This document shows, in pieces, positions 9,757 to 36,509 of a stretch of DNA of 64,000 nucleotides; within the stretch, counting starts at the first letter, position 1; the number at the start of each line of letters is the position of its first letter. The notes beneath the pieces are model-generated. The model was not told where the DNA came from, searched no databases, and worked only from the letters and a program-made list of their open reading frames with translations. Position numbers and translations under genes: made by a program. The stretch is from a virus (taxonomy: Duplodnaviria > Caudoviricetes), in the IMG/VR virus record IMGVR_UViG_3300029288_000138, positions 19,618 to 83,617 of that record; one strand, given 5' to 3'.

Positions 9757-9761
9757 ACCGA

Positions 9762-11763: not shown

Positions 11764-12258
11764 ATGGAAAAGGTTTTTTCAATCTATGGCGTAAAACTTA
11801 ATAACCAAGATCTGCAGAAATCTGCTGATGCGATCAATGCTATAGAATCACAAAAGAAATTGTATGAAGACGATGCTTATTTCTATTTAATCCAAATGGT
11901 TTATGATTTAAGACATAATCAAAAAACATTGTTTCATCCAGTATATCACAATAGAAATTTATCAACAGATATTGAAATTTACCAAGAGGACGACGATTTA
12001 TATATTGGAGTAGATTTTTCAAAAGTAAAATCTAGAAGTAATATTTATTCTAAAAAATATATTAATCAATATCTGGAAATAATAAAAGGTACATTAACTA
12101 TAATTTTAAATAATTTGTGTTTATTATCAAAATTAAATTGTGATTTTTATACGGGATTATATACGGATAACACAGAAGATTTAATTGAATGTTTAAAGGA
12201 GAATAAAGGAAATGATAACAGTTGGTGGAAAGTATACGAACGCCAAGATAATGATTGA
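11764..12258 (+). CDS. hypothetical protein (ends TGA TGA)
   Basis: Early promoter plus GGGG RBS; 3' end overlaps the rtcB start. Confidence 0.65.
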   Translation: MEKVFSIYGVKLNNQDLQKSADAINAIESQKKLYEDDAYFYLIQMVYDLRHNQKTLFHPVYHNRNLSTDIEIYQEDDDLYIGVDFSKVKSRSNIYSKKYINQYLEIIKGTLTIILNNLCLLSKLNCDFYTGLYTDNTEDLIECLKENKGNDNSWWKVYERQDND

Positions 12259-13531
12259 TGATATAGAACCTCAATGTTATTCTCAAATATTATCATTTGT
12301 TAATCACCCGGCATTTACAAATAATATTGCAATAATGCCAGACACTCATGCTGGCAAAGGCAGTGTAATAGGATTTACTATGCCATTAAATCCATATAGA
12401 ATTATACCTAATGTCGTAGGTGTAGATATTTCATGCGGAATTGTAGGCATGTGCTTCGGATTTGATGCCAATTTTAATCTAGATGACTCTGGTAAATATG
12501 CATTTGACACTAAGATTAGAGAATTAATTCCATTTGGCCAGACTGTTCATACTAAATCAGTTATTCATTTTAAAAATGATTTCCCTTGGAAAGAACTAAA
12601 TCAAAATGCTATTGAATTTATCAAGAACTTTTATAATAAATTTAAAATTAGAATAGAACCGCCAAATTATGATTATGACTGGTTTGAAAACAAATGTAAA
12701 CAAATCGGAGTAAAAGTAAAATATGCTATCGATAGCATAGGAACATTAGGCGGCGGGAATCATTTTATTGAAATTGGTAAATCTGAAAAGACTGGTTACT
12801 GGATAACTATTCATAGTGGTTCTAGAAATTTTGGTGCTAGAATATGTCAATATTGGCAAGGAATTGCTGAGAAGAAAATTAAAAATATAAAAATAAATGA
12901 ATTACAAAAAGAAATACTCGATATAAAAAGTAAGTATTCTGGTATAGATATTAATATAGAAATAAACAAAGCCAAAGAAAGGCTTGGATTAAATGATAAA
13001 GTATCTGGTGATCTATTATTTCTAGAAAACGAAGATGCTATCAGTTATTTAGTTGATATGTTATTTACTCAAATGTATGCGGAAGTAAATAGAAATTATA
13101 TGTCATATATACTTTGCAATATCATAAATTCTAGACCAGTAAAAACAATAAAAACTAATCATAATTTTATAGACTTTGAAGACTTTATTATCAGAAAAGG
13201 TGCTATAAAATCATATATTAATGAGGAAATGATAATTCCATTTAATATGGAAGATGGCATATTAATATGCACTGGTAAATCTAACCCAGAATGGAATTAT
13301 TCTGCTCCTCATGGTGCTGGTAGACTATTTTCTAGAAGTGAAGCAAAAAAGAAATTATCATTAGAAGACGCTAAAACTTCAATGGAGAATAGTGGTATTT
13401 TTACTACTGGTATTCCATTAGATGAAGTCAAAGGTGCTTATAAAGATTCAGATGTTATCAAACAAGCAATTGAACCAACTGCTGTTATAATCGACAAAAT
13501 CAACCCAATTCATAATCTAAAGGCTCTATAA
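12212..13531 (+). CDS. rtcB: RtcB RNA 3'-phosphate ligase
   Basis: MPDTHAGKG..IG, VGVDISCG, GTLGGGNHFIE, IHSGSRNFG, HNF, RKGA, SAPHGAGR, AYKD. Confidence 0.95.
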   Translation: MITVGGKYTNAKIMIDDIEPQCYSQILSFVNHPAFTNNIAIMPDTHAGKGSVIGFTMPLNPYRIIPNVVGVDISCGIVGMCFGFDANFNLDDSGKYAFDTKIRELIPFGQTVHTKSVIHFKNDFPWKELNQNAIEFIKNFYNKFKIRIEPPNYDYDWFENKCKQIGVKVKYAIDSIGTLGGGNHFIEIGKSEKTGYWITIHSGSRNFGARICQYWQGIAEKKIKNIKINELQKEILDIKSKYSGIDINIEINKAKERLGLNDKVSGDLLFLENEDAISYLVDMLFTQMYAEVNRNYMSYILCNIINSRPVKTIKTNHNFIDFEDFIIRKGAIKSYINEEMIIPFNMEDGILICTGKSNPEWNYSAPHGAGRLFSRSEAKKKLSLEDAKTSMENSGIFTTGIPLDEVKGAYKDSDVIKQAIEPTAVIIDKINPIHNLKAL

Positions 13532-15733: not shown

Positions 15734-18700
15734 TTGGAGAAATCATTGGTAATCTTAACAGCATTAAATCGTTTGAACTTAGGCTCTAAACGATACAAAG
15801 TAATAGACGAAAATCCTAATTCTAAATATTTTCAAGTATTTGGTTTAACTGACAAAGTATATGGTATAGGAAAGCATTCATTTATATTATATGGTTCACC
15901 ATACTTAATAAAAGGAACTGATATTATAATTGAAATACTTGATATCGAGGGCCAACCAATAGTTTGTCGCGGGGTTCAAGATGATAAATCATTGCCTGGC
16001 TGACGAGTATGATTTAAAGTAACTAAGGCTCATACATCAGGTATAGCAACTATATCAATAGCGGGAAGTGTTGCTGGACTGGGAGATACTATAGGCGGTA
16101 ACCCAAATGCTATCTGACAAAAAACAATATCAATCAATACAGAATTAGCTAATAATAGCGATATAATTTTTAAAGAGACCCCAAGCTTTACAGTTACTGA
16201 AACTATTAGTACTGACTTAGATAAAGATTTAAAATATAGATCTTATGCAAATTTTTATCTAACTGATATGGAAACATATTCTGGTCAAGTTAATTCGGTC
16301 AATGTATATTGTTTAAGTACCGGATCTATTAGTAGTTCTGTCAATCCGTGAAAATTATTAACAAAGAAATCTATTCCAGCAACTGCCGGAATTAATGATA
16401 ATTCTTATTCATTTAAAACTCAAATTAATACTGAAAGAGAAAGAGACTATATATCATTTTATACTGAGTACTTAAATACTTTAGATGAACCGGCTAAAAC
16501 AGTAAGTGGATATGTGTATACGGCATCAGTCATTGATACTCTATTTGAGGGGGCTCAAGATTATATTTTATCCGGAGCATTTGTTGGAGACGGGTTTGTA
16601 ACAGGATCAATATTCTTAAGCAATACTAGGCACTCTGGTATAAAAATGGCTGGAACTAATTCTGGTTACATATTATCAGTTGGGTATGATGGATTTCTTA
16701 GTGCATCATTAGGATTAACTGGACCTGGATTCTTAATTTATAGTGGTTCTGTTCTACCAAGTAGTGGTGATGGTTATACAGGAGTTGGTATAGAATTAGT
16801 TGCAAACAGTAGTAGTTATTTAAGATACTCTACTAATCCAGATAGATTTGAGGTTGTAACAAAAACAGTTTTTCTAGGAACAACTGGTAGTGCTTTTGTA
16901 TCATGTTCTGATGGTTATTTACAAATATATTCTGCTAATTTTAGAATAGATAAAAATGGCAATGTTTATATATCTGGATCAATATCGGCATCTGAAGGAT
17001 ACATTGGTGGATGACAAATACTATCAGATAGATTGCAATCAACAAATAATAATATGATACTGTCTGGTTCTGGTGTTATTTCTTCATCAAATTTTTATGT
17101 ATCTGAAGCGGGAAATTTAACGGCATCTAATGCTTGATTCAAAGGTATAATCAGTTCATCAGAAGGAAACATAGGCGGGTGGACAATTTCTAATGGTAAA
17201 CTAGTATCTAATAATAATAACATGATGTTATCCTCTTCAGGTGTTATCTCATCTTCATATTTCTATGTTGATGAATTTGGTAATTTGTCTGCGTCTTCTG
17301 GTTGGTTTGTTGGAACAGTGACAGCATCTAGAGTTGTAACAGGTGATGGTATAATATCAAATTGAATATTGAGCCCGGAATATTTGTCTGATGCAAATGA
17401 TAAAATTAAACTACAACCAGCTGGACCATATATTATATCATCTTCTCAATTTCAAGTTGATATTAATGGCGGCCTAACTGCATCCAATGCTATAATAAAA
17501 GGCAACATTCAAGCCGATTCTGGTTATATAGGAAATTGAATATTAGATGCGGGTAGATTATCCGGTTCATATATTACTATGGATGCTACTGATTCTAGAA
17601 TATTTAAAACAGATGATAATAATGATGCCACCGGATACTATATAGATTTTACTCCAGGCGCTGGTGATAAGTATTATGTAAGATTTGGGCCAAATTTTGC
17701 TGTATCTTCATCTGGTATTTTAATAGCATCTGGTGCAATTATCGAAGGTGTATTAACTGCATCAGCTGGTTATATAGGTGGTTGAAAAATAGAAACAGAT
17801 AGATTGATATCCGATGGGTCACCATATGTTACAATGATATCAAATACTACGGAAAATTTGGCAATTTCAGCCGGGGCCGTTTCATATCATCTAACTGGTA
17901 GCGCACCGTTTATAGTAACACATGCGGGTGCTATAACAGGATCACAAGTTTTATTTACTGGTGGCAAAATTGGTGGATGAACAATAGGAAATAATCTTTC
18001 ATCAACTGGTATAACTTTGGTACCAAGTGATGCCATAGAATTAGGAACGGCCACCGCATATGATACTGGCAATGGTATATGATTGGGAAATGATGGAGCT
18101 GCTAGATTTGGTAATGCTGCAGCATCTAGGTTACAATGAAATTTAACTAATATTGAAATATACAATTCAACAAATGAAAAAATAATTTCATTTGGTAACA
18201 CAAATACTATTGCCGGGTGATCGATTACCACTAGCAGCATAAGTAAGAATTCAGTATGTATTGATGCTGAAACTGAAAAAATATATGTTTCTAATTCAGG
18301 GTATGTAGTTGCAATTGGTAAATATGATGGTTCAAATTATGGTATATATGCTAATGATGGTTCTAATACATTATTTGAAATGGGAACAAATGGAAATACT
18401 ATTGCTAATTGAACTATATCCAGTGGTTCATTAAGATCTCCGAGTGATGAAATTATATTAGATTCTACTAATAAAAAAATAGTAGTTGGAAATAATATTG
18501 TAATTGATGGAGCAAATAAATCTATCAGCTCTAATGGATATCAATCTGGTATTAAAGGATTTAATATAACTCCAGAATATGCAGAGTTTGGTAATGTATC
18601 TGTAAGAGGAGAAATTCATTCCGCAGTATTTACAAAGGATATTATCAATGCTGTTAATGGCTATTTAATGATAGCAAATTCATCTATTTTATCAGAATCT

Positions 18701-23553: not shown

Positions 23554-23657
23554 ATTAAAATTATTGTTTTATTGATTAGAATTATTTAAATTATGATGCT
23601 TTTTAAAAATTAAAATTAGTTCGCCTTTAACTATTCAATAAGTTATTTAAAAATTGA

Positions 23658-23810
23658 ATTTGGGATGTAAAAACTGACGGCTATGGTGCATACCGCTATC
23701 AACGACCCAGTCTGGCTGCGCTGCCCACCTGAAATATGGTAAAAGTTGGATTTGCATGACTATGACCTTGGATTTTCGACAGAGAAAATCAAGTAGTACC
23801 CATCCTAAAT
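23658..23810 (+). ncRNA. Unassigned structured RNA
   Basis: 10-bp closing stem ATTTGGGATG/CATCCTAAAT; internal hairpins including CTTGGATTTTC/GAAAATCAAG; GC-rich, no ORF. Confidence 0.55.
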
Positions 23811-23821
23811 TATATATGAAA

Positions 23822-23927
23822 GGCTACTGTGGCGAAATGGAAACCGCAAGACCTGAACCCGTACCAGTAGAATATCTACTGGTGTATCTAAAGCGGCAAT
23901 GCAGGTTCGAATCCTGTCAGTAGCCCA
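23822..23927 (+). ncRNA. tRNA-like RNA 1 with non-canonical central domain
   Basis: GGCTACTG/CAGTAGCC acceptor, GCG/CGC D-stem, perfect T-arm GCAGG-TTCGAAT-CCTGT; 53-nt centre with hairpin ACCAGTAG/CTACTGGT and no 7-nt anticodon loop. Confidence 0.75.
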
Positions 23928-24404: not shown

Positions 24405-24477
24405 GTAGATGTAGCTAAATTGGTATAGCAGTTGGCTGTTAACCAACGGGATAAAAGTTCAAATCTTTTCGTCTACG
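24405..24477 (+). tRNA. tRNA-Asn(GTT)
   Basis: Cloverleaf; GTTGG-CTGTTAA-CCAAC. Confidence 0.9.
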
Positions 24478-24512
24478 CATAATTATTGTTATTTGACATA
24501 GTGATAAAGAAT

Positions 24513-24592
24513 GCATTGGTAGCCCGATTGGCAAGGGGGCGGACTGTAAATCCGTTTAATCATCAAAGTAAGTTCGAATCTTCTCCAATGCA
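24513..24592 (+). tRNA. tRNA-Tyr(GTA)
   Basis: GCATTGG/CCAATGC acceptor; GCGGA-CTGTAAA-TCCGT. Confidence 0.9.
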
Positions 24593-24597
24593 CTACT

Positions 24598-24670
24598 GAG
24601 TCTTTAGCTAAATTGGTAAAGCAATCAGCCCTTACCTGATAGATTGTATGTTCAAGTCATATAAGACTCA
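24598..24670 (+). tRNA. tRNA-Lys(CTT), atypical loop with C33
   Basis: GAGTCTT/AAGACTC acceptor; ATCAG-CCCTTAC-CTGAT. Confidence 0.7.
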
Positions 24671-24679
24671 CTATAAATA

Positions 24680-24758
24680 GGGCCTTTAACTCAGTTGGTT
24701 TTAGAGTGCTGAGCTCATAACTCAGGAGTCACCTGTTCAAATCAGGTAAGGCCCACCA
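24680..24758 (+). tRNA. tRNA(CAT), Met or Ile2, with encoded CCA
   Basis: GGGCCTT/AAGGCCC-A-CCA; CTGAG-CTCATAA-CTCAG. Confidence 0.88.
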
Positions 24759-24825
24759 AAAAATATTGGTTAAAATATAACGCCTTGGTAGAAAATTAAA
24801 ATTTAACTAAATATAAAAAGTATTC

Positions 24826-24898
24826 GACCTTGTCATCTAATTGGTTAGGATATAAGACTTTCAATCTTATAATACAAGATCGTATCTTGTCCGGGTTA
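24826..24898 (+). tRNA. tRNA-Glu(TTC), divergent
   Basis: TAAGA-CTTTCAA-TCTTA; T-arm ACAAG-ATCGTAT-CTTGT; one acceptor mismatch. Confidence 0.7.
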
Positions 24899-24931
24899 CT
24901 AAAATTTACTAATAGCATAAGGAGAAATAAC

Positions 24932-25450
24932 ATGGAAATTATTAATGCAATCATAGACAAAATTAAATGTAATTTTAATCCAGAATATCCAAGTATATAT
25001 AGAAATTTACGGTATTTTTTCAATTCATTACTGGGTAGATATTCTTGGTATAATTCGTGGGGAATGCCATCATATATTGCAGAGAGAATGTTACCATTAC
25101 TATATAATGTAAGAAAACAATGTCATTCATATCCCGGAATGTTAAGTAGCTTTGAAGAATGGCAAAATATTTTAGATGATATAATATTTGCATTAGAATA
25201 TTATATCTGTAATGAGCATCAATTTAATCCATTACGATATAGAAAATTGAAAAAGCAATTTACAAAAAAATATGGCTGGCATACTACAAAAAATGAAAAT
25301 TTTAAAAGAAAACCCTGTAGAGATATTATACAAGGATATTTCAATAATTTTCCATATAAATGTAATTATGATTTGCAGATCAAATTTGAAGAAAGAATGC
25401 AGAGGGGGTTTGAATTAATGGGTAAATATTTTACATATCTATATGATTAA
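24932..25450 (+). CDS. conserved phage hypothetical protein
   Basis: AGGAG RBS before ATG 24932; EEWQNILDDIIFALE...GFELMGKYFTYLYD. Confidence 0.8.
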   Translation: MEIINAIIDKIKCNFNPEYPSIYRNLRYFFNSLLGRYSWYNSWGMPSYIAERMLPLLYNVRKQCHSYPGMLSSFEEWQNILDDIIFALEYYICNEHQFNPLRYRKLKKQFTKKYGWHTTKNENFKRKPCRDIIQGYFNNFPYKCNYDLQIKFEERMQRGFELMGKYFTYLYD

Positions 25451-25463
25451 TAAACATTTAATT

Positions 25464-25537
25464 CTGGGTGTAATTTAATTGGTTAAACTCCGTGCCTTGG
25501 AAGCACGTTTATGCCTGTTCAAATCAGGCTGCCCAGA
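25464..25537 (+). tRNA. tRNA-Pro(TGG)
   Basis: CGTGC-CTTGGAA-GCACG; T-arm GCCTG-TTCAAAT-CAGGC. Confidence 0.88.
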
Positions 25538-25585
25538 CACTTTATTTTTTCTTGTTTTATTGATTAATTATATAATAAATTTATT

Positions 25586-25661
25586 GGGGCTGGGGAATGC
25601 TTGGGGTGTTCGCCTCGCTTGCACCGAGGATATCAGGTCAGTTCAAATCCGACTAGCTCCA
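25586..25661 (+). tRNA. tRNA-Ala(TGC)
   Basis: GGGGCTG/TAGCTCC acceptor with G3:U70; CCTCG-CTTGCAC-CGAGG. Confidence 0.85.
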
Positions 25662-25680
25662 CAATATAGGAGATATACAT

Positions 25681-25884
25681 ATGAACAAAATACAAAATAA
25701 ATACAAACTCATTGTTGCTCTATTCATATCATATGTAATAGAATCTATTGCATTAATTTTAATTGGAAAGAAGATGCTAAGTACTACTGGATTATACTTA
25801 TTAGCATGGATTCAATGGGGGCTAAATATTATAATTTCTTTTCTATCTTACATTTGGATAGATTCATTGGATAGAAAAAAGTAA
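25681..25884 (+). CDS. small membrane protein
   Basis: AGGAG RBS; two hydrophobic segments. Confidence 0.65.
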   Translation: MNKIQNKYKLIVALFISYVIESIALILIGKKMLSTTGLYLLAWIQWGLNIIISFLSYIWIDSLDRKK

Positions 25885-25889
25885 ATAAT

Positions 25890-25978
25890 GGAGGAATCGC
25901 TCAACTGGTGGAGCAGCTGACTTGAAATCAGCCAGGCTATTAACAATAGTCTTGGGGGTTCGAATCCTCTTTCCTCCG
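25890..25978 (+). tRNA. tRNA-Ser (anticodon TGA)
   Basis: GGAGGAA/TTCCTCC acceptor; GCTGA-CTTGAAA-TCAGC; long variable arm. Confidence 0.92.
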
Positions 25979-26039
25979 CAAAAATTCATTACAAATAAGA
26001 TATAATACTGAACAAAGAAAAAAAGAAGAGGACTCATTA

Positions 26040-26459
26040 ATGTTAAATTTTAAAGTATTCTCTAGACAAAATATAGAACAATATCAAAGTAAAAATTCTT
26101 GGTGCTTAATTTCTATACGAGACCCTGGTAGTAATATTGTTTCTATAAATACAGATAATCTGATATCTTCTATTTACTTGGATTTTTATGATTTAGATCA
26201 GTCAATTCCGGGCATGAAAAATTGCAAAATGATCGATAAATTCGATGCAATCAAAATTATAGAAATGGTCGAAGAATTTAAACATGTATGTAATACTTTT
26301 TGTATAAATTGTGAAGCCGGAGAAAGTAGAAGTTCCGGAGTAGCAGCGGCATTATCTAAAATATACAATAAAAATGATGATGTGTATTTTCAATCATATT
26401 GCCCAAATAGACTTGTATATAGAACAATTTTATCAGTAGCATTTGATATGGATTTATGA
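26040..26459 (+). CDS. predicted protein-tyrosine-phosphatase-like protein (ends TGA)
   Basis: P-loop-like NCEAGESRSSGVA; C-terminal PNRLVY. Confidence 0.75.
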   Translation: MLNFKVFSRQNIEQYQSKNSWCLISIRDPGSNIVSINTDNLISSIYLDFYDLDQSIPGMKNCKMIDKFDAIKIIEMVEEFKHVCNTFCINCEAGESRSSGVAAALSKIYNKNDDVYFQSYCPNRLVYRTILSVAFDMDL

Positions 26460-26464
26460 GAATA

Positions 26465-26537
26465 GGGCTCTTATTCTAACTGGATAAAATGCAAGGCTAC
26501 GACCCTTGAGATGCAAGTTCAAATCTTGTAGAGCCCT
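26465..26537 (+). tRNA. tRNA-Arg(ACG)
   Basis: GGGCTCT/AGAGCCC; CAAGG-CTACGAC-CCTTG. Confidence 0.9.
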
Positions 26538-26546
26538 CTTATTTAA

Positions 26547-26619
26547 CCGGGTATAGTTCAATTGGTAGAACGCCAGCCTTCCAAGTTGGTTGTTAAGAGT
26601 TCAAGTCTCTTTGCCCGGT
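26547..26619 (+). tRNA. tRNA-Gly(TCC)
   Basis: CCGGGTA/TGCCCGG; loop CTTCCAA; discriminator U. Confidence 0.88.
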
Positions 26620-26621
26620 CT

Positions 26622-26692
26622 GTGACTGTAGTTTAATGGTAAAACGCATGGCTGTGGCCCATGTCATACGGATTCGATTTCCGTCAGTCACC
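26622..26692 (+). tRNA. tRNA-His(GTG)
   Basis: GTGACTG/CAGTCAC-C73; loop CTGTGGC; base -1 is T, not G. Confidence 0.9.
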
Positions 26693-26709
26693 AATAATAT
26701 TATGTATTA

Positions 26710-26781
26710 TGGGCAATAGTTTAATGGTAAAATCCCGGTCTCCAAAACCGATAGATGAGAGTTCAAATCTTTCTTGCCCGG
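26710..26781 (+). tRNA. tRNA-Trp(CCA)
   Basis: CGGT-CTCCAAA-ACCG; discriminator G. Confidence 0.9.
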
Positions 26782-26859
26782 CAATAAATTTTTTCTTCTA
26801 GGCGCTATATTTATTTATGGATAAATAAAAAGATATAACTATAACTAGGAGAAAATAAA

Positions 26860-27318
26860 ATGCCAGAAATGAAACCGGCCAGTGGAGTAAAATTTAATAC
26901 ACCTCACTATGATGAAATACAGCAAATATTAAATTATTTACAAAAAGTAACTGGAGCTCAATATACTAATTGCTATTCAGATGTATCAAAAGTATATAGA
27001 GCAAAATTAAAACAAAATACAGTATTATTAAGTGCACCGACTGCATCAGAAATTGTTAACACTATAGGTGCTACTGTTACTTGGATAGCTATAGATACTG
27101 GTTCTTATGTAGCATCAGCATCATCTGAGATTTTTTCAACGGGATCTTTGAGCTGCTGGGCACATTTAGGTTCACCAATGTCTCACAGTTTAGAAGCAAA
27201 TGTTTATATTACACCATCTGGTAGTAAAGGTGACCAATGTGTGTTAAAAGTATATGACACCGGCTCAGTATTAACAGACGGGTTTGATAACTTGTTTGTA
27301 GAAATCAAAATTGCATAA
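26860..27318 (+). CDS. hypothetical protein, probably virion-associated
   Basis: Late motif at 26808 plus GGAG RBS; motif YRAKLKQ...APTA..I.NTIG. Confidence 0.7.
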   Translation: MPEMKPASGVKFNTPHYDEIQQILNYLQKVTGAQYTNCYSDVSKVYRAKLKQNTVLLSAPTASEIVNTIGATVTWIAIDTGSYVASASSEIFSTGSLSCWAHLGSPMSHSLEANVYITPSGSKGDQCVLKVYDTGSVLTDGFDNLFVEIKIA

Positions 27319-27438
27319 TTAAACCAAAATTTTTGTTTTGTTATAAAGTATTTTTCTATATAGTCTAGTAATGGACTTATAGAATTACTTTGTTTGTACA
27401 TATGCTCCTATAATTCAATAAGTTGAAATTTCATAAAA

Positions 27439-27511
27439 GCCACAGTAGTTTAATTGGGAAAACGACTGACTTGTAATCAGTAGAGAGTGGGTTCGATTCC
27501 AACCTGTGGCT
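27439..27511 (+). tRNA. tRNA-Thr(TGT)
   Basis: GCCACAG/CTGTGGC; ACTGA-CTTGTAA-TCAGT. Confidence 0.9.
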
Positions 27512-27525
27512 CTAATCTTTATTAT

Positions 27526-27596
27526 ACCTCAGTAGTTCAATGGTAGAATGGGTGACTGATATTCATCTGATAGTAGTTCAATTCTATTCTGGGGTA
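27526..27596 (+). tRNA. tRNA-Ile(GAT)
   Basis: ACCTCAG/CTGGGGT; GGTGA-CTGATAT-TCATC. Confidence 0.82.
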
Positions 27597-27601
27597 CTAT
27601 T

Positions 27602-27673
27602 GCCTTTGTAATTCAATTGAAAGAATGATTGATCCGTAATCAATTTATACTAGTTTGAGTCTAGTCAAAGGCT
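27602..27673 (+). tRNA. tRNA-Thr(CGT), atypical loop with C33
   Basis: GCCTTTG/CAAAGGC; ATTGA-TCCGTAA-TCAAT. Confidence 0.75.
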
Positions 27674-27811
27674 CAAAGATTTTTCTTGTTTATATGTAAT
27701 ATATTCATTAAATTATTTTGAAAATTGAAAATATGTATTTTATCAATAATTATATATATCTAATTGAAAAAGACTAAGTAATCAAAGAGAAAATAAAAGG
27801 AAAAATAAACA

Positions 27812-28282
27812 TTGAGAGGGTTTGCTTGTATTGGATTAGATAATCCAAAATTTATTGGAAATATAGGGGGCGTTTTACGAGCCTGCAATAATTATAATGC
27901 TTCTTTAATTGTAATTTCGGGTCAAAGATTTAAAAAGCAATGTACAGATACTACAAAGGCATATCGTCGTATCCCGCTTTTGCAAGTAGAAAATCTTAAA
28001 GATGCAATTCCTTATGATTGTGTTCCCGTTGCAGTGGATTTAATAGAAGGCGCGAGGTCGTTACCAGAATATACTCATCCGGAAAGGGCGTTTTATATTT
28101 TTGGTGCTGAAGATGCTACTCTTGGAGAAAGAATACTTTCTTGGTGCAGGGATATAGTTTATATTCCAACCAACAGATGTATAAATTTAGCAGCAACCGT
28201 TAATGTTGTGCTATATGATAGACTTGCAAAACAACTCAATATGAAAGGGGAGAAATATGAAAGCAAAAGATTATTTGAATAA
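27812..28282 (+). CDS. SpoU/TrmH-family RNA 2'-O-methyltransferase
   Basis: LDNPK..GNIGGVLRAC; IFGAEDATL; IPTNRCINLAATVNVVLYD (SPOUT motifs). Confidence 0.88.
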   Translation: MRGFACIGLDNPKFIGNIGGVLRACNNYNASLIVISGQRFKKQCTDTTKAYRRIPLLQVENLKDAIPYDCVPVAVDLIEGARSLPEYTHPERAFYIFGAEDATLGERILSWCRDIVYIPTNRCINLAATVNVVLYDRLAKQLNMKGEKYESKRLFE

Positions 28283-28454
28283 AAAATTAGTTCCAGATCC
28301 AATTAAAGGTAAGCCAATTGTTTGTCCATGTTGTGGGAAATTTATTGGTTACGATAAGGACTTTATGTTTATGGTAATTCAAAGACCAGGAATTGTCTGC
28401 CCAGATTGTGATGAAATTGTTATTCCTTGTAGTAACATAACCAATATAATATAA
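28257..28454 (+). CDS. small zinc-ribbon protein
   Basis: CPCCG ... CPDCD. Confidence 0.7.
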   Translation: MKAKDYLNKKLVPDPIKGKPIVCPCCGKFIGYDKDFMFMVIQRPGIVCPDCDEIVIPCSNITNII

Positions 28455-28467
28455 CAATCAATTATTT

Positions 28468-28540
28468 GTGCCCATAGTGAAACGGATTATCACAGTGGCC
28501 TTCTAAGCCTCTAGTCCAAGTTCAAATCTTGGTGGGCATA
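28468..28540 (+). tRNA. tRNA-Arg(TCT)
   Basis: GTGCCCA/TGGGCAT; loop CTTCTAA. Confidence 0.88.
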
Positions 28541-28568
28541 CGCATACATTTACAACAAGGAGTATATT

Positions 28569-28829
28569 ATGAATTCAGAGTCAAAAGACCATAAAGAATT
28601 TACCGAAGAGGAATGTAATTTGATCTTAAATGCATTACTATTTTCTGCGAATGAAGATATGTGCGCAAATTTTAGTGATAATGATAATAGCAATATGATG
28701 TCATTAGCATCAAAAATAGAAAAAATCTATCCTGATATGTTACCTGATTTAATCTATGCCGTTAGATATAAACATAATACTAGTAACATGAAGATACTGA
28801 AAAAACTCAAAGTAAATATTGAACAGTAG
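28569..28829 (+). CDS. hypothetical protein
   Basis: AGGAG RBS. Confidence 0.65.
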   Translation: MNSESKDHKEFTEEECNLILNALLFSANEDMCANFSDNDNSNMMSLASKIEKIYPDMLPDLIYAVRYKHNTSNMKILKKLKVNIEQ

Positions 28830-28913
28830 CCCCGATGGCGGAATGGTATACTGCAACAGACTTAAAATCTGTCGTCCTTTATGGGCATGTAAGTTCAAAT
28901 CTTACTCGGGGTA
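28829..28913 (+). tRNA. tRNA-Leu(TAA)
   Basis: GCCCCGA/TCGGGGT; ACAGA-CTTAAAA-TCTGT; variable arm. Confidence 0.92.
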
Positions 28914-28925
28914 CACTGATAGTAT

Positions 28926-29009
28926 GCATCTATAGACGAATTGGCATAGTCAACAGGCTTAGACCCTGTGCCTGTTATAGGCGTGGTGGTTCAACTCCAC
29001 TTAGATGCA
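28926..29009 (+). tRNA. tRNA-Leu(TAG)
   Basis: GCATCTA/TAGATGC; ACAGG-CTTAGAC-CCTGT; variable arm. Confidence 0.9.
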
Positions 29010-29020
29010 CTTTTGAAATT

Positions 29021-29093
29021 GGATTCGTGGTCTAATGGCAAGGGCACTAGATTGTCGATCTAGACGATGCCAGTTCAAATCTGGTCGAATCCG
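29021..29093 (+). tRNA. tRNA-Asp(GTC)
   Basis: GGATTCG/CGAATCC; CTAGA-TTGTCGA-TCTAG. Confidence 0.9.
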
Positions 29094-29162
29094 CTAAAAA
29101 TAGTTCTTTGATTTTATAGTATTTTTAATTAAATTTAGAGGGTTAAATAAAAAGGAAACTGA

Positions 29163-29786
29163 ATGAATTCTATAACATTCCAAAATAAAATAGAAGGATT
29201 TAATAACAAAATAACATTTTCAGAAGATGCCGATAGAATTGTTTCTGTTATTGTATATAGTAGTGCAAAATTTTACAAAGAATTTAAAAATATAAAATTA
29301 AAGCATTTATTGAAAATTATTACATCTGGATATATTGAAGATACTGGAAATTTATACACTGATATTTTATTTTCTAAATCTGATACAGATAAATTAATAA
29401 ACTGGTTAATTGAAACTAGAGCATTTAAAGAAAATAAAAAGAGAATTATGCCAGTCGCCATAGAATATGAAGGAGAAATTATTGGATATTCTATGAATTG
29501 CGCCTGTTTTAGTCCAAGTCATTGTATACGATTTCACAAAAAAGATAGATTTGATATGCATGAAAATATCAATTACTTATTTTCTTTTGAAGCTAATTTG
29601 GAATGGGTATATTATGATGATTCTAATAATCGAAATGATATTGAGATTTTTGACAGGATTAGAATTATAGCAAAAAGATTTGCTGATACTATTCTAGAAA
29701 GACCAGTAACATTTTCATCCGAATTTATGTTTAATTACCATACAAATCAAGTTGTAGATTTTGTTAATATTTTAAATGGATTTTAA
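29163..29786 (+). CDS. hypothetical protein
   Basis: Weak early promoter plus AGGA RBS; intact ORF. Confidence 0.7.
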   Translation: MNSITFQNKIEGFNNKITFSEDADRIVSVIVYSSAKFYKEFKNIKLKHLLKIITSGYIEDTGNLYTDILFSKSDTDKLINWLIETRAFKENKKRIMPVAIEYEGEIIGYSMNCACFSPSHCIRFHKKDRFDMHENINYLFSFEANLEWVYYDDSNNRNDIEIFDRIRIIAKRFADTILERPVTFSSEFMFNYHTNQVVDFVNILNGF

Positions 29787-29817
29787 ATAAACAATAAGTT
29801 AAAAACAGGAGGCAAAT

Positions 29818-30513
29818 ATGCCATATAAAAAAGATAATGTATTCACGAAATTTATACGAAAACTTAGGCGACATGGATATGTCAGTGGAACCACATTGTC
29901 ATCTTCAGTACTATATTATGATTTTGGGGGTGGGGGACTCGCTTCTACCAATAGTAATGATCCAAATTCTTTACAACATAAAGATACTAGAGAAGCAAAA
30001 AAACCAGTAGAAATATATAATGAAATCATTTCGGAATCCCCAATACTTGATTTAACAAACTTAGATGAAAAAATAAAAATTGTATATAAACGATTACAAG
30101 CACTGGAAGAATTAGGAATGCATCCAACGGATGAAAATACCGCATTGCAATATTTAAGAGCCAGAAAAAAGTTTAAAGAATATTCAGAATTAAAGTGGGC
30201 GGCCACCAATCAAGATTTGATTAATAAACTTTGTGCAAAATATAAAGTAAAGCAAGTAACATTTAATTTGTATTACAAAAGTGTCCCGAATGAAGGAATA
30301 GATGAAATTGAAAAATTTGCAGAAATATTTAAAAAAATAATCAGAAAAGAAGATATTACAAATATGTTACATTTGATTATTGATGATGGCGGCGAAGAAA
30401 CGAAGAAAGACCCGATTCTTCTTGCAAAATCACCATTTGGAAATTATTTTTATATTCTTGGTGCGTGGGATAAAGAAGTAGAAATAGTTGATAAATTAGT
30501 ATATAATGCTTAA
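29818..30513 (+). CDS. conserved phage hypothetical protein
   Basis: GGAGG RBS; C-terminal KKDPILLAKSPFG...ILGAWDKE. Confidence 0.8.
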   Translation: MPYKKDNVFTKFIRKLRRHGYVSGTTLSSSVLYYDFGGGGLASTNSNDPNSLQHKDTREAKKPVEIYNEIISESPILDLTNLDEKIKIVYKRLQALEELGMHPTDENTALQYLRARKKFKEYSELKWAATNQDLINKLCAKYKVKQVTFNLYYKSVPNEGIDEIEKFAEIFKKIIRKEDITNMLHLIIDDGGEETKKDPILLAKSPFGNYFYILGAWDKEVEIVDKLVYNA

Positions 30514-30560
30514 AAACACTAATATATAGAAAAAATAATTGGTTTTGGAGGAAACATATA

Positions 30561-30698
30561 ATGCAAAACATCGAGAAATTTAGATATTTTTGTTATATCA
30601 TATGAGTATTATTAGAACCAATCATGTTATATTTTTTAATTAAATATTGTATAACAATTACAAAGTTATTAAATTTAATACTAATAAAATTACAGTAA
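30561..30698 (+). CDS. small hydrophobic ORF; TGA 30603 read as Trp
   Basis: GGAGG RBS; 45 codons to TAA. Confidence 0.4.
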
Positions 30699-30710
30699 AA
30701 GGAGAATGAA

Positions 30711-31004
30711 ATGCCAGAAAAAATTAAATTATACAGAGGAATAGATGCTTGGAGTGCAGTACATCTATTGGGTTGCTATTTTCTAATGACTTTGGGATTG
30801 CAATGACATGAAACAGTAACATTAGGAATTTTATGAGAAGGAATAGATTACATTTATTCATGTTATTCTGATAAGTTACCAACGTGGGTATCTTTAATAT
30901 TTGATCCGAGAGGCGCAGATATAATGGATATAGTAATGGATTCAATTGGAATTCTACTATTCATTGGACTTAGATATTTTGGTATTTATATGTTTTTTGC
31001 ATAA
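30711..31004 (+). CDS. small membrane protein; 2 TGA read as Trp
   Basis: AGGAG RBS; D.WS.VH...GIL*EGID...D...DI.MD.IG pattern; absent from the track. Confidence 0.7.
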
Positions 31005-31017
31005 ATATTTATATAAT

Positions 31018-31320
31018 AGGTGGGTATCTCAACTGGTAGAGACACGGTCTTTAACTAAGGAGCTTTATATTGGAAACAGTATAAATGAAAGAGAATGATA
31101 TCGGTGAACCCTGTAAAATGGCAATACCGAGGGAATAGATTTTTTAATCTAGCCCGTAGAGAGCAGATAATTCTCAACCTAAGTTATATTTTTGTAATAT
31201 GGTTAAGATGTGCTCCAGACTACAAACAACTTTTAGTTGGTGGTGAAAATCATAGTAGTATGCAAAACCGTATCGGGCCTCCAAAGCCTGGGCATGCGGG
31301 TTCAACTCCTGCCCCACCTG
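31018..31320 (+). tRNA. Intron-containing Trp-type tRNA with UCA anticodon (opal decoder) plus a second CCA anticodon-like arm
   Basis: Acceptor AGGTGGG/CCCACCT-G73; D-arm TCTC/GAGA; exons join as ACGGT-CTT|CAAA-ACCGT; then AT-CGGGC-CTCCAAA-GCCTG-GGCAT; T-arm GCGGG-TTCAACT-CCTGC. Confidence 0.85.
31052..31262 (+). mobile_element. Self-splicing group I intron (211 nt, IC3/tRNA-Leu(UAA)-like, no ORF)
   Basis: P1 CUU paired with GAG guide (U.G at the splice site); P2 TTTATATTG-GAAA-CAGTATAAA; P3 GAGAAT/ATTCTC; P4-P5 TCGGTGAACC..GGCAATACCGA; P6 GGG/CCC; P7 GAGCA/TGCTC; P8 AACC/GGTT; P9 region ACTAC/GTAGT with GAAA loop; terminal G 31262. Confidence 0.9.
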
Positions 31321-31346
31321 CGAGTAATTAATAAAAGGAGTTATGT

Positions 31347-31577
31347 ATGAAAGAATTTTTAAATCATATAGTTGATGTAAAAATAGACAATGAATTAAAT
31401 CGAGGTTTAGTTATAGCAACTCACGAATTTAAAGAAATGCAAGATACAGAATCACCAGATGATATGCCAAGTTTTTTAGATAAAGTTAAAGTTACTGTTT
31501 ATTTTCCGTTATATAAAAGATGTATGAAATTAGATTCAAATCAAATAATTAATGTTAGAGAAGAATTTCAATTATAA
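31347..31577 (+). CDS. hypothetical protein
   Basis: AGGAG RBS. Confidence 0.7.
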   Translation: MKEFLNHIVDVKIDNELNRGLVIATHEFKEMQDTESPDDMPSFLDKVKVTVYFPLYKRCMKLDSNQIINVREEFQL

Positions 31578-31582
31578 AATAT

Positions 31583-31654
31583 TCCCCGATCGTATAATTG
31601 GCAGTACACTAGGCCTTGGACCTGGTTATAGTGGTTCGAATCCATTTCGGGGAG
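31583..31654 (+). tRNA. tRNA-Gln(TTG), atypical loop with C33
   Basis: TCCCCGA/TCGGGGA-G; CTAGG-CCTTGGA-CCTGG. Confidence 0.82.
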
Positions 31655-31665
31655 CATAATATTTA

Positions 31666-31739
31666 GCCTTGATAGTTTAATCTGGCAGAACATCTGGCTT
31701 ACATCCAGAAGATTGAAAGTTCAAATCTTTCTCAAGGTA
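31666..31739 (+). tRNA. tRNA-Val(TAC)
   Basis: GCCTTGA/TCAAGGT; TCTGG-CTTACAT-CCAGA. Confidence 0.9.
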
Positions 31740-31814
31740 CCAATAAAAAATAGTATTTGTTTTATATCTGTTTTTTCATTAAATTATATTGTTATTTAAT
31801 TATAGAGGGTTACA

Positions 31815-31985
31815 ATGAAAGATGAAGAAATAATGGCATTGGTTGAACAAGAAGCAAATGAGTTTCGAGTTCAACATGATATGTGTATTCTTATTCCAGA
31901 CCATTTGTTAATAATGGCTATTCTGACTGGGGTAAAAATGGGAATGGATTTGTTTAACAAAGAAATTAAAAAACTCAATGAATAA
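31815..31985 (+). CDS. small hypothetical protein
   Basis: GAGGG RBS; 56 aa. Confidence 0.55.
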   Translation: MKDEEIMALVEQEANEFRVQHDMCILIPDHLLIMAILTGVKMGMDLFNKEIKKLNE

Positions 31986-32799
31986 ATTAGAATATGAAAC
32001 AAATTTAATCAAAGATCTGAATAAAGAATTATTCTCGGAAATAATTCCTAAACATTCGGAGAAATTACAGTTTGATTTACTCAAGCATAGTGCAATTCTA
32101 TCATATCGAGGTTCTTTAACTAACGGCACTTATATACCAGATTCAATTGATGACATTGATATAATTGGTATAATTATTCCCCCAATTGAATATGTCCTTG
32201 GCAATAAACAATTTGGTAGTAGAGATACTATAGAAATAAAAGATGGGAAATGGGATATTGTTTTATATTCAATCAAAAAATTCTTTAATCTATTAGTAAA
32301 AAATAATCCAAACATTGTTAGTGTATTATGGTTACCTGAAAGATTTGATATTCATATAAATGAAATTGGCATTGAAATTATAAAACACAGAGAAGAATTC
32401 ATTAATAAAAACATATACAATTCTTTTCTGGGCTATGCTAATGATCAATTAAATAGGATGACTAAATTTACTTTTGAAGGATACATGGGCGAAAAAAGAA
32501 AGCAACTAGTTAACAAATATGGATTTGATTGTAAGAATGCATCACACCTAATTCGATTACTAAAAATGGCATTAGAAGTAATTGTAACTAAGAAATTTAT
32601 TGTTTATCGAGAAAACGATGCCGATGAACTAGTAGCAATAAAAAGAGGTGATTGGTCAATTGAAAAAGTAAAAAAATATGCTAATGATTTATTTGCTAGT
32701 ATTGAATTACTTCGGGGAAGTACACAATTACCAGATGAAAATTATGACGCTGCAAATAAGTTACTAATAGAATTATCAAAAAAGTTTTATAGGATATAA
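31978..32799 (+). CDS. DNA polymerase beta-superfamily nucleotidyltransferase
   Basis: YRGSLTNGTY.PDS.DDIDIIGI; KNNPNIV; GFDCKNASHLIRLL. Confidence 0.85.
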   Translation: MNKLEYETNLIKDLNKELFSEIIPKHSEKLQFDLLKHSAILSYRGSLTNGTYIPDSIDDIDIIGIIIPPIEYVLGNKQFGSRDTIEIKDGKWDIVLYSIKKFFNLLVKNNPNIVSVLWLPERFDIHINEIGIEIIKHREEFINKNIYNSFLGYANDQLNRMTKFTFEGYMGEKRKQLVNKYGFDCKNASHLIRLLKMALEVIVTKKFIVYRENDADELVAIKRGDWSIEKVKKYANDLFASIELLRGSTQLPDENYDAANKLLIELSKKFYRI

Positions 32800-35365: not shown

Positions 35366-35443
35366 ATTTATCTTGTTTTCTATTCAGTATTATATTAAAT
35401 TATAGAGTTATTTAAAATTAATTAGTTATTTGAAAATAGAAAT

Positions 35444-35510
35444 GGGAGGTGGCGAGAATCGTATGGTTCATGTTTGTTCATTAATCAGGCCTACGACGTT
35501 AGTCACCCCC
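35444..35510 (+). ncRNA. Structured RNA A of ncRNA cluster
   Basis: GGGAGGTGGC/GTCACCCCC closing stem; inner TCGTA/TACGA. Confidence 0.5.
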
Positions 35511-35531
35511 TAGGTTTTTTGAAAATTTTGT

Positions 35532-35640
35532 CTCTCATATCAAATAGTATATGAGGAAACAGCATTGTCAAAAAAGCGAATGAGTACACCCGCAAGGCCT
35601 CTGGAGTCGCCAAGCGTCTTTAAGTCTTGCGGGAAAGATT
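35532..35640 (+). ncRNA. Structured RNA B of ncRNA cluster
   Basis: CTCATAT/ATATGAG and CCCGCAAG/CTTGCGGG stems. Confidence 0.5.
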
Positions 35641-35655
35641 TTTGAAAATTGAATA

Positions 35656-35768
35656 TGCTCGGCGGAATAGATACTTGTATACGGGTTACTATTTCAGAAC
35701 TCACAAGTCTACTGCATAAGTTGAGATAGATTTATCTTAGACAAGTCGATGGGTGGTCGATCCGAGCA
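35656..35768 (+). ncRNA. Structured RNA C of ncRNA cluster
   Basis: TGCTCGG/CCGAGCA closing stem; ACTTGT/ACAAGT. Confidence 0.5.
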
Positions 35769-35773
35769 GAAAA

Positions 35774-35892
35774 GGCTACTGTGGCGGAATAAATAGCATG
35801 CTTGGCAGACGCACGGCAAGATGTGTGGTGGGAAGCCAGATTAACCTTTAACATACATACATCATACGGGTTGAAATCCCGTCAGTAGCCCA
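35774..35892 (+). ncRNA. tRNA-like RNA 2 (same ends as 23822-23927)
   Basis: Starts GGCTACTGTGGCG, ends GTCAGTAGCCCA; T-arm ACGGG-TTGAAAT-CCCGT; enlarged D-loop; central GATGTGTG/CATACATC stem and no canonical anticodon loop. Confidence 0.75.
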
Positions 35893-35917: not shown

Positions 35918-35964
35918 AGGTCACAGAGTTTATTTTTTCCCTTCTTTTCTCTGTGACCTTTTTT
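35918..35964 (+). terminator. Intrinsic terminator closing the ncRNA cluster
   Basis: AGGTCACAGAG/CTCTGTGACCT followed by T run. Confidence 0.75.
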
Positions 35965-35996
35965 ATTTTACCAAACTAAAATATTTATATTTGTAT

Positions 35997-36509
35997 ATGA
36001 TAAAATTCAAAAAAATAGTACTAGAACTATCGTTAAAAGATAGAGCAGAAGATATAGCTCAAATAGTTCATAGTGGTCAAAATAGACGTTCGTCTGGTGC
36101 ACCATACATAATTCATCCTGTTAGAGTTCAATTACTAGCAAAACGATTTGGATTGGGAAACGATGAACAATTGATTGCAATATTACATGATACATATGAA
36201 GATAGTAATAACAAATCTTTGGTAATTGCAAATATTAACAATAAATTTGGTAATGAAATTGCTAAAAATGTTATTGCATTGTCACACGAACGAGGTACAG
36301 ATTATACTAATTATGTATATGAATTATCCAAAAAATACCCAAAAGCATTCAATGTTAAACTATTGGATATGTACGATAATTTAATTGATAATCCGTCAAG
36401 TTCGCAAAAAATAAAATATTCTGAAACATTACTATTTTTAATAAATCATGGAGTAAGAATAAATAATGGTATAAAAAACGATTTAATGAAAATCATAGGG
36501 AGAAAATAA
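35997..36509 (+). CDS. HD-domain RelA/SpoT-like (p)ppGpp hydrolase (small alarmone hydrolase)
   Basis: HSGQNRR..GAPYIIHPVRV; AILHDTYED; VKLLDMYDNL. Confidence 0.88.
   Translation: MIKFKKIVLELSLKDRAEDIAQIVHSGQNRRSSGAPYIIHPVRVQLLAKRFGLGNDEQLIAILHDTYEDSNNKSLVIANINNKFGNEIAKNVIALSHERGTDYTNYVYELSKKYPKAFNVKLLDMYDNLIDNPSSSQKIKYSETLLFLINHGVRINNGIKNDLMKIIGRK

Follow-up and report, generated by a model that had tools for sequence, protein, structure and literature searches.

What does a phage make from a gene that keeps the acceptor, D and T arms of a tRNA and carries an unrelated structure in place of the anticodon arm? The question is raised by a 106-nt element, here termed e1, in a 64,000-nt stretch of phage DNA (the window; positions 19,618 to 83,617 of IMG/VR record IMGVR_UViG_3300029288_000138), which also holds a paralogue, e2. 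The source record is 83.6 kb long and was estimated to cover ∼42% of the genome. The phage is T4-like, with a gp23-type capsid protein and a gp20-type portal, and its capsid protein is 47–49% identical to those of the nearest cultured relatives. It has 22 ordinary tRNA genes, phenylalanine being the sole amino acid without one, and an unusual RNA-end repair set composed of RtcB, a CCA-adding enzyme, an RNA ligase, RlaP and a SpoU methylase, the gene for the last lying within the tRNA array. Homing endonuclease motifs and introns are also present in the genome, and neither a Ro60 (TROVE) nor a Thg1 gene was found in the 83.6-kb record, that is, in ∼42% of the genome.

The preliminary description had read e1 as an 8-bp end-to-end stem followed by CA, a Leu-like D arm and a perfect T arm, and each of these was found again at the same positions. 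The stem is formed by GGCTACTG (23822-23829) and CAGTAGCC (23918-23925), then CA; U8-G9 stands after the 5′ acceptor strand and before the D arm, and the D arm has a GCG/CGC stem with A14, A15, G18 and G19 in its loop. The elbow is retained: G18-G19 lies opposite the UUCGAAU loop, and A15 opposite U48. The Rfam tRNA model (RF00005) matched 23823-23925 at 35.7 bits (gathering score 29), aligning the acceptor, D and T arms and leaving 38 nt unaligned in place of the 17-nt anticodon arm. ARAGORN in its default mode called no tRNA in e1, nor in e2, and e1 has no 5-bp anticodon stem with a 7-nt loop and U33, the loop of its central hairpin being merely 3–5 nt.

For the 53 nt that separate the D arm from the T arm, the preliminary description gave one long hairpin in place of an anticodon arm. 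The hairpin is present, and can be read in the sequence as ACCAGTAG-AATAT-CTACTGGT, but it does not make up the whole interval, which consists of an 11-nt linker, a bulged arm of 38 nt (4 bp, a 9-nt bulge, 9 bp and a 3-nt loop) and a 4-nt linker. This interval (23848-23900) folds better than its shuffles (z = −3.6). When e1 is made to form the acceptor, D and T helices, its fold has −35.0 kcal/mol, whereas the unconstrained minimum is −37.4 kcal/mol; a rival helix, CCGC-A-AGA/TCT-AAA-GCGG, which displaces the D stem, gives a near-equal −34.4 kcal/mol. The core helix of the central arm, CUACUG/CAGUAG, repeats 6 bp of e1's own acceptor helix and could be the mark of a sequence-specific partner; a strand-swapped fold that exchanges the two repeats is disfavoured, at −17.7 kcal/mol. 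A complementarity search within the window found no antisense target for the single-stranded linker. An assembly artefact is excluded for the e1 region, since four further independent assemblies, made from different samples, agree with it base for base over 321 nt; for the same reason they provide no covariation. A 55-aa ORF (23756-23923) that overlaps e1 was rejected as the content of the region: no ribosome-binding site was seen before its ATG, and the RNA accounts for the region.

The second element has the ends of e1 and a different middle. Exact counts and a failed alignment of the two middles confirmed that the first 13 and the last 12 nt are identical (25 of 25 positions) and the centres unrelated. 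Each of these words occurs exactly twice in the window (the 13-nt start at 23822 and 35774, the 12-nt end at 23916 and 35881), whereas two ordinary tRNAs, of the 21 that Rfam aligned, have at most 4–5 nt in common at either end. Between the two T arms 5 of 17 positions have changed, among them a compensatory pair (A:U to G:C) and a further replacement of G.U by A:U, and both elements have a perfect acceptor stem and a perfect T stem. Under neutral decay, 25 unchanged end positions beside a T-arm divergence of 29% would have a probability of ∼2e-4 by our own estimate, and we conclude that the ends are held by selection or gene conversion. Besides the known tRNAs, e1 and e2 are alone in the whole 83.6-kb record in combining a perfect 7-bp acceptor with a 5-bp T arm, the same scan having given one artefact, a match across the adjacent Gln and Val genes. 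In e2 the D loop has 19 extra nt in the alignment to the covariance model R1 described below, and the D stem is without mismatch in both elements. Since G replaces C56 in its T loop and the D loop is enlarged, the elbow of e2 may be altered; the element is not matched by RF00005. The view that the suppressor tRNA of the phage follows the same design found no support: 31018-31320 is a decoding tRNA with an ∼210-nt intervening sequence in its anticodon loop and a long variable arm, and the loop would read CUUCAAA once the intervening sequence is removed.

Table 1. Features of the e1 and e2 units, in window coordinates.
Feature	Position	Strand	Remark
Promoter-like TTGTTT-N17-TAAATT ahead of the e1 unit	23564..23592	+	230 nt upstream of e1
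Non-coding stretch with a closing stem of ∼10 bp	23658..23810	+	Directly upstream of e1
e1, tRNA-shaped RNA 1	23822..23927	+	106 nt with base −1 and CA tail
e1 acceptor helix, 5′ strand (G-1 plus G1-G7)	23822..23829	+	Pairs with 23918-23925; identical in e2
e1 leucine-type D arm	23832..23847	+	D-arm alignment by Rfam and the R1 model
e1 single-stranded linker, 11 nt, with CUGAA	23848..23858	+	Constrained fold
e1 bulged 13-bp arm where the anticodon arm would be	23859..23896	+	
e1 T arm GCAGG-TTCGAAT-CCTGT	23901..23917	+	Perfect stem
e1 3′ acceptor strand: C73 (pairs with G-1), C74, A; full CCA unencoded	23918..23927	+	
Promoter-like TTGTTT-N17-TAAATT ahead of the e2 unit	35373-35401		400 nt upstream of e2
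e2, paralogue of e1: same ends, enlarged D loop, unrelated middle	35774..35892	+	119 nt
Terminator-like hairpin and T run after e2	35918..35966	+	Read in sequence

Both elements lie in what appear to be transcribed units. The promoter-like motif that precedes each of them (Table 1) occurs 16 times in the window, where 0.73 copies are expected, and 15 of these copies are on the + strand. Downstream of e1 follow two small ORFs and then the tRNA array, with no terminator between; none was found after e1. The 3′ signature of e1 and e2 is that of the phage tRNA genes, in which the sequences diverge after N73-C74: 20 of the 21 Rfam-aligned ordinary tRNA genes have C74, and the Val and Met genes alone encode the full CCA. 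From these putative transcription signals we infer that e1 and e2 are expressed.

Relatives of this particular copy proved scarce. The preliminary description had asked for conserved homologues; frames of the e1 type do occur in many phages, as described below, but outside the identical assemblies the searches returned nothing homologous to the middle of e1 itself, so its central arm allows no covariation test. Patterns made from the exact ends of e1 returned nothing in viral or metagenome contigs, and in a BLAST search of 50,697 phage records e1 matched only tRNAs of Vibrio and Pectobacterium phages, over their T arm and 3′ acceptor strand. Neither the e2 cluster nor the sequence that precedes e1 gave a BLAST match. 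No close relatives of the upstream 131-aa ORF, of RlaP or of Hsp20 were found in viral contigs or a large protein set; the 65-aa and 131-aa proteins have relatives at 50–66% identity in many phages, with different adjoining genes and no e1-like RNA adjoining. Contigs that encode an identical 65-aa protein have an e1 region that is base-for-base identical, and relatives of the capsid protein (≤67% identity) are on short contigs that end before the tRNA region. The nearest complete genomes, scanned with the Rfam tRNA model, gave no element comparable to e1. A few odd long Rfam tRNA matches were seen in LR756508. The 8-bp stem of e1 is present in no tRNA among the genomes of 185,579 species. Many Clostridia have the 7-bp stem GCTACTG/CAGTAGC in a tRNA-Thr, mostly Thr(CGU), and the examples listed have T73 and are without G-1; we take this match as a weak hint of the host, and not as evidence of mimicry.

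A search with the frame alone was more productive. The pattern GTGGCGRAAT-N58-88-GGTTSRAATCC, which joins a D-arm word to a T-loop word, matched more than 116 uncultured phage contigs in IMG/VR, and in 104 of the 118 matches listed the acceptor forms 6–7 of 7 pairs in register, with lengths of 97–126 nt. The constant frame in the matches listed consists of a 7-bp acceptor, U8-G9, a Leu-type D arm, a CAU-type run and the T arm, and ends in A73 in 96/104 and C74 in 101/104 members. Inserts of ∼55–85 nt replace the anticodon arm and are unrelated between members; after removal of near-duplicates, 80 distinct middles remained among the matches listed, and for none of the family sequences tested among them did ARAGORN call a tRNA. 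The acceptor stems covary, for example AGTCAGG, GGATAAG, GGTATCG and ACTACCG. The family turns out to be large and modular, with one constant Leu-type frame and many unrelated middles, and Rfam has no family for such Leu-type tRNA shell RNAs (T5 RNA1-like). Only 33/104 members (among the matches listed) have an ordinary tRNA within 2 kb, which speaks against the reading favoured below. The middles have a median fold z of −0.5 against shuffles, 14% being below −2, and such weak structure fits a ‘spacer’ as well as a ‘cargo’.

We built the covariance model R1 from 60 family members, with nothing from the phage of e1 and e2. In the window it ranked e1 first (53.1 bits, E 3.9e-11) and e2 second (41.4 bits, E 3e-8), scores that are partly circular because the retrieval words came from e1 and e2; on the ordinary tRNAs of the phage it gave 36.3 bits for tRNA-Leu(UAA) and 26.4 bits for tRNA-Ser. 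RNA1 of phage T5 lies outside the retrieval pattern and is nevertheless matched by R1, at 42.6 bits, between e1 and e2, and it therefore serves as an independent check on the family. The preliminary description had argued for a selected scaffold rather than decay, and the family speaks for this view, as the frame recurs with unrelated middles in more than 100 phage contigs, its acceptors covary, and R1 recognises e1 and e2. The nearest ordinary model is the type II bacterial tRNA-Leu, with which e1 and the family share U8, G9, the D stem G10-C11-G12/C23-G24-C25, A14, A15, G18-G19, the T loop and U48 facing A15. Unlike tRNA-Leu, they are without an anticodon arm and a Leu anticodon and have base −1 paired to 73; A73 is shared by tRNA-Leu and the family majority, whereas e1 and e2 have C73.

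RNA1 of phage T5 (AY543070, 30501-30644) is annotated as a ‘tRNA-like stable RNA with unknown functions’. Like e1 it comes from a tRNA region, has an acceptor helix and a T arm together with a Leu-type D arm (CGGAAUUGGUAGACG), and carries a long insert that replaces the anticodon arm. It differs from e1 in acceptor sequence and middle, and in the R1 alignment it has a non-standard closing pair and an end other than G-1:C73; a direct BLAST comparison found no similarity between the two. Moreover, T5 RNA1 is annotated as a stable RNA, whereas e1 is known here from sequence. By frame and R1 score, e1 and e2 are new members, with a histidine-type end, of a T5 RNA1-like class of phage tRNA-shaped RNAs.

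Such RNAs have companions in other phages. The T5 species RNA1 and RNA2 and the T4 species RNAC and RNAD have been annotated since about the 1970s–80s. RNAC (species 1, 139 nt) and RNAD (species 2, 119 nt) of T4, like RNA1 and RNA2 of T5, are annotated as stable RNAs of the tRNA region with roles unassigned (PMC3014915; PMC9697503). T4 RNAC has a canonical T arm, with an acceptor-like 3′ strand after it, and across T-even phages the T arm and end helix are its most conserved parts and the stem of its internal hairpin covaries. It is unlike e1 in having a 46-nt 5′ extension outside the tRNA-like module and in being without a Leu-type D arm, and R1 matched it at 23.8 bits over its 3′ 92 nt. The regions of e1 and e2 have no BLAST similarity to T-even phages. 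An AGUAG/CUACU hairpin common to e1 and T4 RNAC was set aside as chance, because the stem covaries in the RNAC family.

Other tRNA-like RNAs are more distant. YrlA and the bacterial and phage Y RNAs, which are bound by Ro60 and often occur with RtcB, resemble e1 in being non-decoding, in having a tRNA-like elbow and in belonging to an RtcB-encoding genome. Chen et al. in 2014 reportedly described YrlA as ending in the Ro-binding stem, with its acceptor stem capped by a loop, a topology opposite to that of e1, whose ends form the acceptor helix. We rejected e1 as a Y RNA on this topology, on the lack of an Rfam Y RNA match at the gathering score and on the lack of a TROVE gene in the record, which spans ∼42% of the genome. 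We also rejected it as a tmRNA, since pair 3:70 is T:A and not G3:U70 and ARAGORN made no tmRNA call. In the engineered tRNA scaffold, mascRNA and the viral tRNA-like RNAs of MHV68, the top half of a tRNA allows processing and confers stability, and either another structure takes the place of the anticodon arm or the element punctuates a longer transcript. Their design principle is like that of e1, but they are artificial or eukaryotic and without homology to it.

The end of the acceptor helix separates e1 and e2 from most of the family. In the first family set the −1:73 pair is T:A in 78/104 and paired in 85/104 members, bases −2 and 74 are unpaired, and G stands at −1 in 1/104, the same member having C73 (all among the matches listed). 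The T:A majority by itself proves little because T-1 is also common 5′ of the ordinary tRNAs of the phage, and it is the switch to G:C that carries the argument. In a second retrieval, for which family members were picked for C73 and C74, G-1 was present in 11/11 C73 members with a well-paired acceptor, across 7 different acceptor sequences, and the 5′ flank was AAG in 9/11 of these, likewise in e1 and e2. The elements e1 and e2 themselves have G-1:C73, then C74 and A. The strict switch of the −1:73 pair from T:A to G:C implies that base −1 is part of a functional 8-bp helix in the family. What is new here is this covariation across the family and the placing of e1 and e2 in its G-1:C73 subclass.

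Among ordinary tRNAs a G-1:C73 end is the hallmark of tRNA-His. Like tRNA-His, e1 and e2 have an encoded G-1 that pairs with C73, so that the acceptor helix reaches 8 bp and stacks on the 5-bp T stem; unlike it, they have no GUG anticodon and their D arm is Leu-type. In the tRNA-His gene of the phage itself (26622-26692), base −1 is T. HisRS charges minihelices and microhelices that bear G-1:C73, and Escherichia coli tRNA-Leu without its anticodon and variable arms can be charged if A73 and the D/T-loop contacts are kept; A73 is the main LeuRS determinant, and its change to C73 abolishes leucylation of the minimal tRNA-Leu (PMC9976931). Most family members thus appear to keep the complete anticodon-independent LeuRS identity set, and e1 and e2 appear to have swapped it for a histidine-type end. 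Since the latter end in G-1:C73 and not A73, they would be substrates of HisRS rather than LeuRS, if they are aminoacylated at all. A bolder proposal would make the whole family aminoacylatable, anticodon-independent tRNA mimics, LeuRS-type in the A73 majority and charged by HisRS in the G-1:C73 subclass, so that phages make charged non-decoding RNAs which feed, sequester or mislead a host aminoacyl-tRNA reader or the synthetases; we regard it as speculative and improbable.

The reading that we favour, at a probability of about 0.55 and thus somewhat better than even, is that e1 and e2 are genes for a non-decoding tRNA-shaped RNA, of a phage family that keeps the Leu-type top half of a tRNA, and that the variable arm is the working part. 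Most likely, e1 would be an early-transcribed, tRNA-processed and stable non-decoding RNA. The early-type promoter at 23564 would drive e1 within a precursor that reaches the two small ORFs and the tRNA array. Because the acceptor/T-arm minihelix and the D/T-loop elbow are kept, the tRNA maturation enzymes would be expected to excise e1: RNase P would act at the 5′ end, and the 3′ end would be trimmed and its CCA completed, the latter by the phage-encoded CCA-adding enzyme. The RNA would then accumulate as a stable L-shaped molecule, and its fast-changing middle arm, shown on the tRNA frame, would bind a host or phage factor, probably as part of a phage–host conflict over tRNA. A frame that supplies maturation and stability, with a variable arm that does the work, is the most economical reading, and among the roles guessed at in the preliminary description, that of a processed, stable carrier of a cargo RNA fits the family pattern best; a decoy or a RelA/T-box-type mimic, also proposed there, would be a possible role that the analysis neither favoured nor contradicted.

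The constant frame, rather than the arm, might instead be the working part. RNase P would leave G-1 in place, the CCA would be completed, and HisRS would bind and possibly charge e1 and e2, or another reader of acceptor ends would be occupied (a nucleotidyltransferase toxin, an acceptor-stem nuclease or EF-Tu), the RNA acting as a sink or decoy. The G-1:C73 pair of e1, e2 and all 11 well-paired C73 members argues for this, together with the charging of G-1:C73 minihelices by HisRS and of minimal tRNA-Leu unless A73 becomes C73 (PMC9976931). It is also consistent with e1 and e2 having kept the exact acceptor sequence, beyond its pairing, with the 6-bp repeat of that helix in the e1 hairpin and with the heavy investment of the phage in tRNA-end repair. 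However, the many acceptor sequences across the family mean that no single sequence-specific partner can serve the whole family, the elbow of e2 may be altered by the G for C56 and the enlarged D loop, and the hypervariable middles are left without a reason. We consider such an acceptor-end mimic possible, though unlikely.

A further alternative places the function outside the element: e1 and e2 would be RNase P and 3′-processing signals that free their neighbours, giving the upstream stretch its 3′ end and the downstream mRNA its 5′ end, with the tRNA-shaped piece as a by-product. The tRNA-like mascRNA is such a processing signal for MALAT1. The arrangement of the locus suits this proposal, as a non-coding stretch with its own closing stem precedes e2 (35654-35770) as well as e1 (23658-23810), both elements begin 5–11 nt after these stretches, the same promoter motif stands ahead of both, and the end of e1 is followed after 12 nt by the ribosome-binding site of the 65-aa ORF. 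Moreover, the part common to e1 and e2 is the minihelix that RNase P requires. But the fold of the stretch before e1 is no better than that of its shuffles (z −0.7 to −0.8), and it has no match in Rfam or, by BLAST, in phage records. An ordinary tRNA would suffice for punctuation, which leaves the hypervariable inserts of 55–85 nt, the kept Leu-type D arm and the −1:73 covariation unexplained, and we hold the proposal to be distinctly unlikely.

It is quite improbable that e1 and e2 are functionless remnants of tRNA genes whose anticodon region was broken by insertions, such as the scars of homing-type cassettes. The frame is clearly tRNA-derived, and the homing endonuclease motifs and introns of the phage could be cited in favour, but no inserted gene or inner tRNA was found within e1, and decay would have to spare all 25 end positions beside T arms diverged by 29% (∼2e-4), the perfect acceptor helices of both copies, the 6–7 of 7 acceptor pairs in 104/118 family matches listed and a −1:73 pair that covaries. 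Very improbable indeed is an intron-bearing tRNA-Phe restored to decoding by removal of an intervening piece and RtcB ligation: the preliminary description had named such an intron as a way back to an ordinary tRNA, and phenylalanine alone is missing from the 22 tRNAs, CUGAA follows the D arm of e1 and RtcB is encoded, but the sole solution, a tRNA-Phe(GAA) with a 14-nt intron called by ARAGORN when introns are allowed, is contrived, as it splits the anticodon between bases 35 and 36, leaves an anticodon stem of 3 Watson-Crick pairs flanked by mismatches, puts the T of CTGAA at position 32 and not 33 (standard numbering) and has no counterpart in e2 or in the more than 100 family members tested (ARAGORN), while a tRNA-Phe may lie elsewhere because the record is ∼42% of the genome.

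The element e1 ties an uncultured T4-like phage to the class of stable RNAs that includes RNA1 and RNA2 of T5 and RNAC and RNAD of T4. The family itself is little described, although T5 RNA1 has long been known. Should the middles be displayed ‘cargo’, phages would have in this family a natural equivalent of the engineered tRNA scaffold, and the family could then be a reservoir of small RNAs for phage–host conflicts.

The 8-bp acceptor helix of the two tRNA-shaped RNAs that lack an anticodon arm (e1 and its paralogue e2) ends in an encoded G-1:C73 pair, unlike the phage's own tRNA-His(GUG) gene (26621-26695), which has the discriminator C73 but T rather than G at position -1, and we found no Thg1-family gene in the 83.6-kb record. 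Of the 21 ordinary tRNA genes that the Rfam model aligned (24405-31742), 20 encode C74 and only those for Val and Met encode the full CCA. The phage also carries a dense RNA-repair and tRNA toolkit of six genes, which are listed in the table with some of the other features described here.

Features in the window and in a Vibrio phage (window positions unless another record is named)
Feature	Position	Details
RNA ligase	1839-2936	
CCA-adding enzyme	9750-11114	phage's own
RtcB	12212-13531	
SpoU methylase	27812-28282	within the tRNA array
RlaP nucleotidyltransferase	31978-32799	
HD phosphohydrolase	35991-36509	directly after e2
Intron-bearing tRNA	31018-31320	acceptor AGGTGGG/CCCACCT; anticodon stem ACGGT/ACCGT
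ORF-free fold	35532-35640	z -4.2
ORF-free fold	35654-35770	z -2.7; four-way junction, 7-bp closing stem
TTGTTT-N17-TAAATT (examples of 16 copies)	127, 1619, 11705, 23094, 23564, 35373, 37332, 41522	
Annotated 'tRNA-OTHER', 76 nt	1454-1529 of L001 (Vibrio phage 1.285.O, MG592655)	also in related Vibrio phages

Copies of the promoter-like motif TTGTTT-N17-TAAATT are far more frequent in the window than expected (16 against 0.73), and all but one of them (15/16) are on the + strand. Between the copy at 35373 and e2 lie three further folds without an ORF (35444-35770), none of which was matched in Rfam or by phage BLAST. Within e2 itself, the enlarged D loop contains a perfect 8-nt palindrome, AGCATGCT (35795-35802), and because this palindrome is too short for self-folding, two e2 molecules could pair with each other through it.

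The covariance model built from 60 similarly shaped RNAs of other uncultured phages gave 30.7 bits for the 'tRNA-OTHER' of Vibrio phage 1.285.O. In this gene the acceptor helix spans 8 bp (GGTTACTG/CAGTAACC), the T arm matches that of e1 exactly and the anticodon stem is poor. Two matches of the same model in the window were weak (9015-9132, 18.7 bits; 17955-18013, 17.6 bits), and the first of them sits within a 676-aa ORF (7265-9295) and is probably due to chance. In the 484-kb uncultured phage LR756508, a 116-nt stretch (437352-437467; 103-218 of L024) combines good D and T arms with a long middle, lacks clear pairing of the acceptor strands and scores 25.4 bits with the Rfam tRNA model. A total of 748 phage records contain T4 RNAC, a small stable RNA of the T4 tRNA cluster (T-even phages; 1405-1550 of L145, and L148-L150), the majority of them at ≥95% identity; in its divergent members the hairpin preceding the T arm keeps an invariant CGUCAA loop on a stem that covaries.

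The intron-bearing tRNA was called by ARAGORN with introns allowed; its intervening sequence is ∼210 nt long and ends in G, and the match of this tRNA to the Rfam tRNA-Sec model is weak and partial (22.5 bits). Removal of the intervening sequence would leave the loop CUUCAAA with the anticodon UCA. Its 24-nt variable arm itself resembles a CCA anticodon hairpin.

In many Clostridia, tRNA-Thr carries the 7-bp acceptor GCTACTG/CAGTAGC followed by TGGC: among matches in genome contigs (L025-L144, mostly Clostridia MAGs), 119 of 120 were tRNA-Thr, and 114 of those 119 were Thr(CGU). This shared acceptor sequence may point to the host range of the phage, though only weakly.
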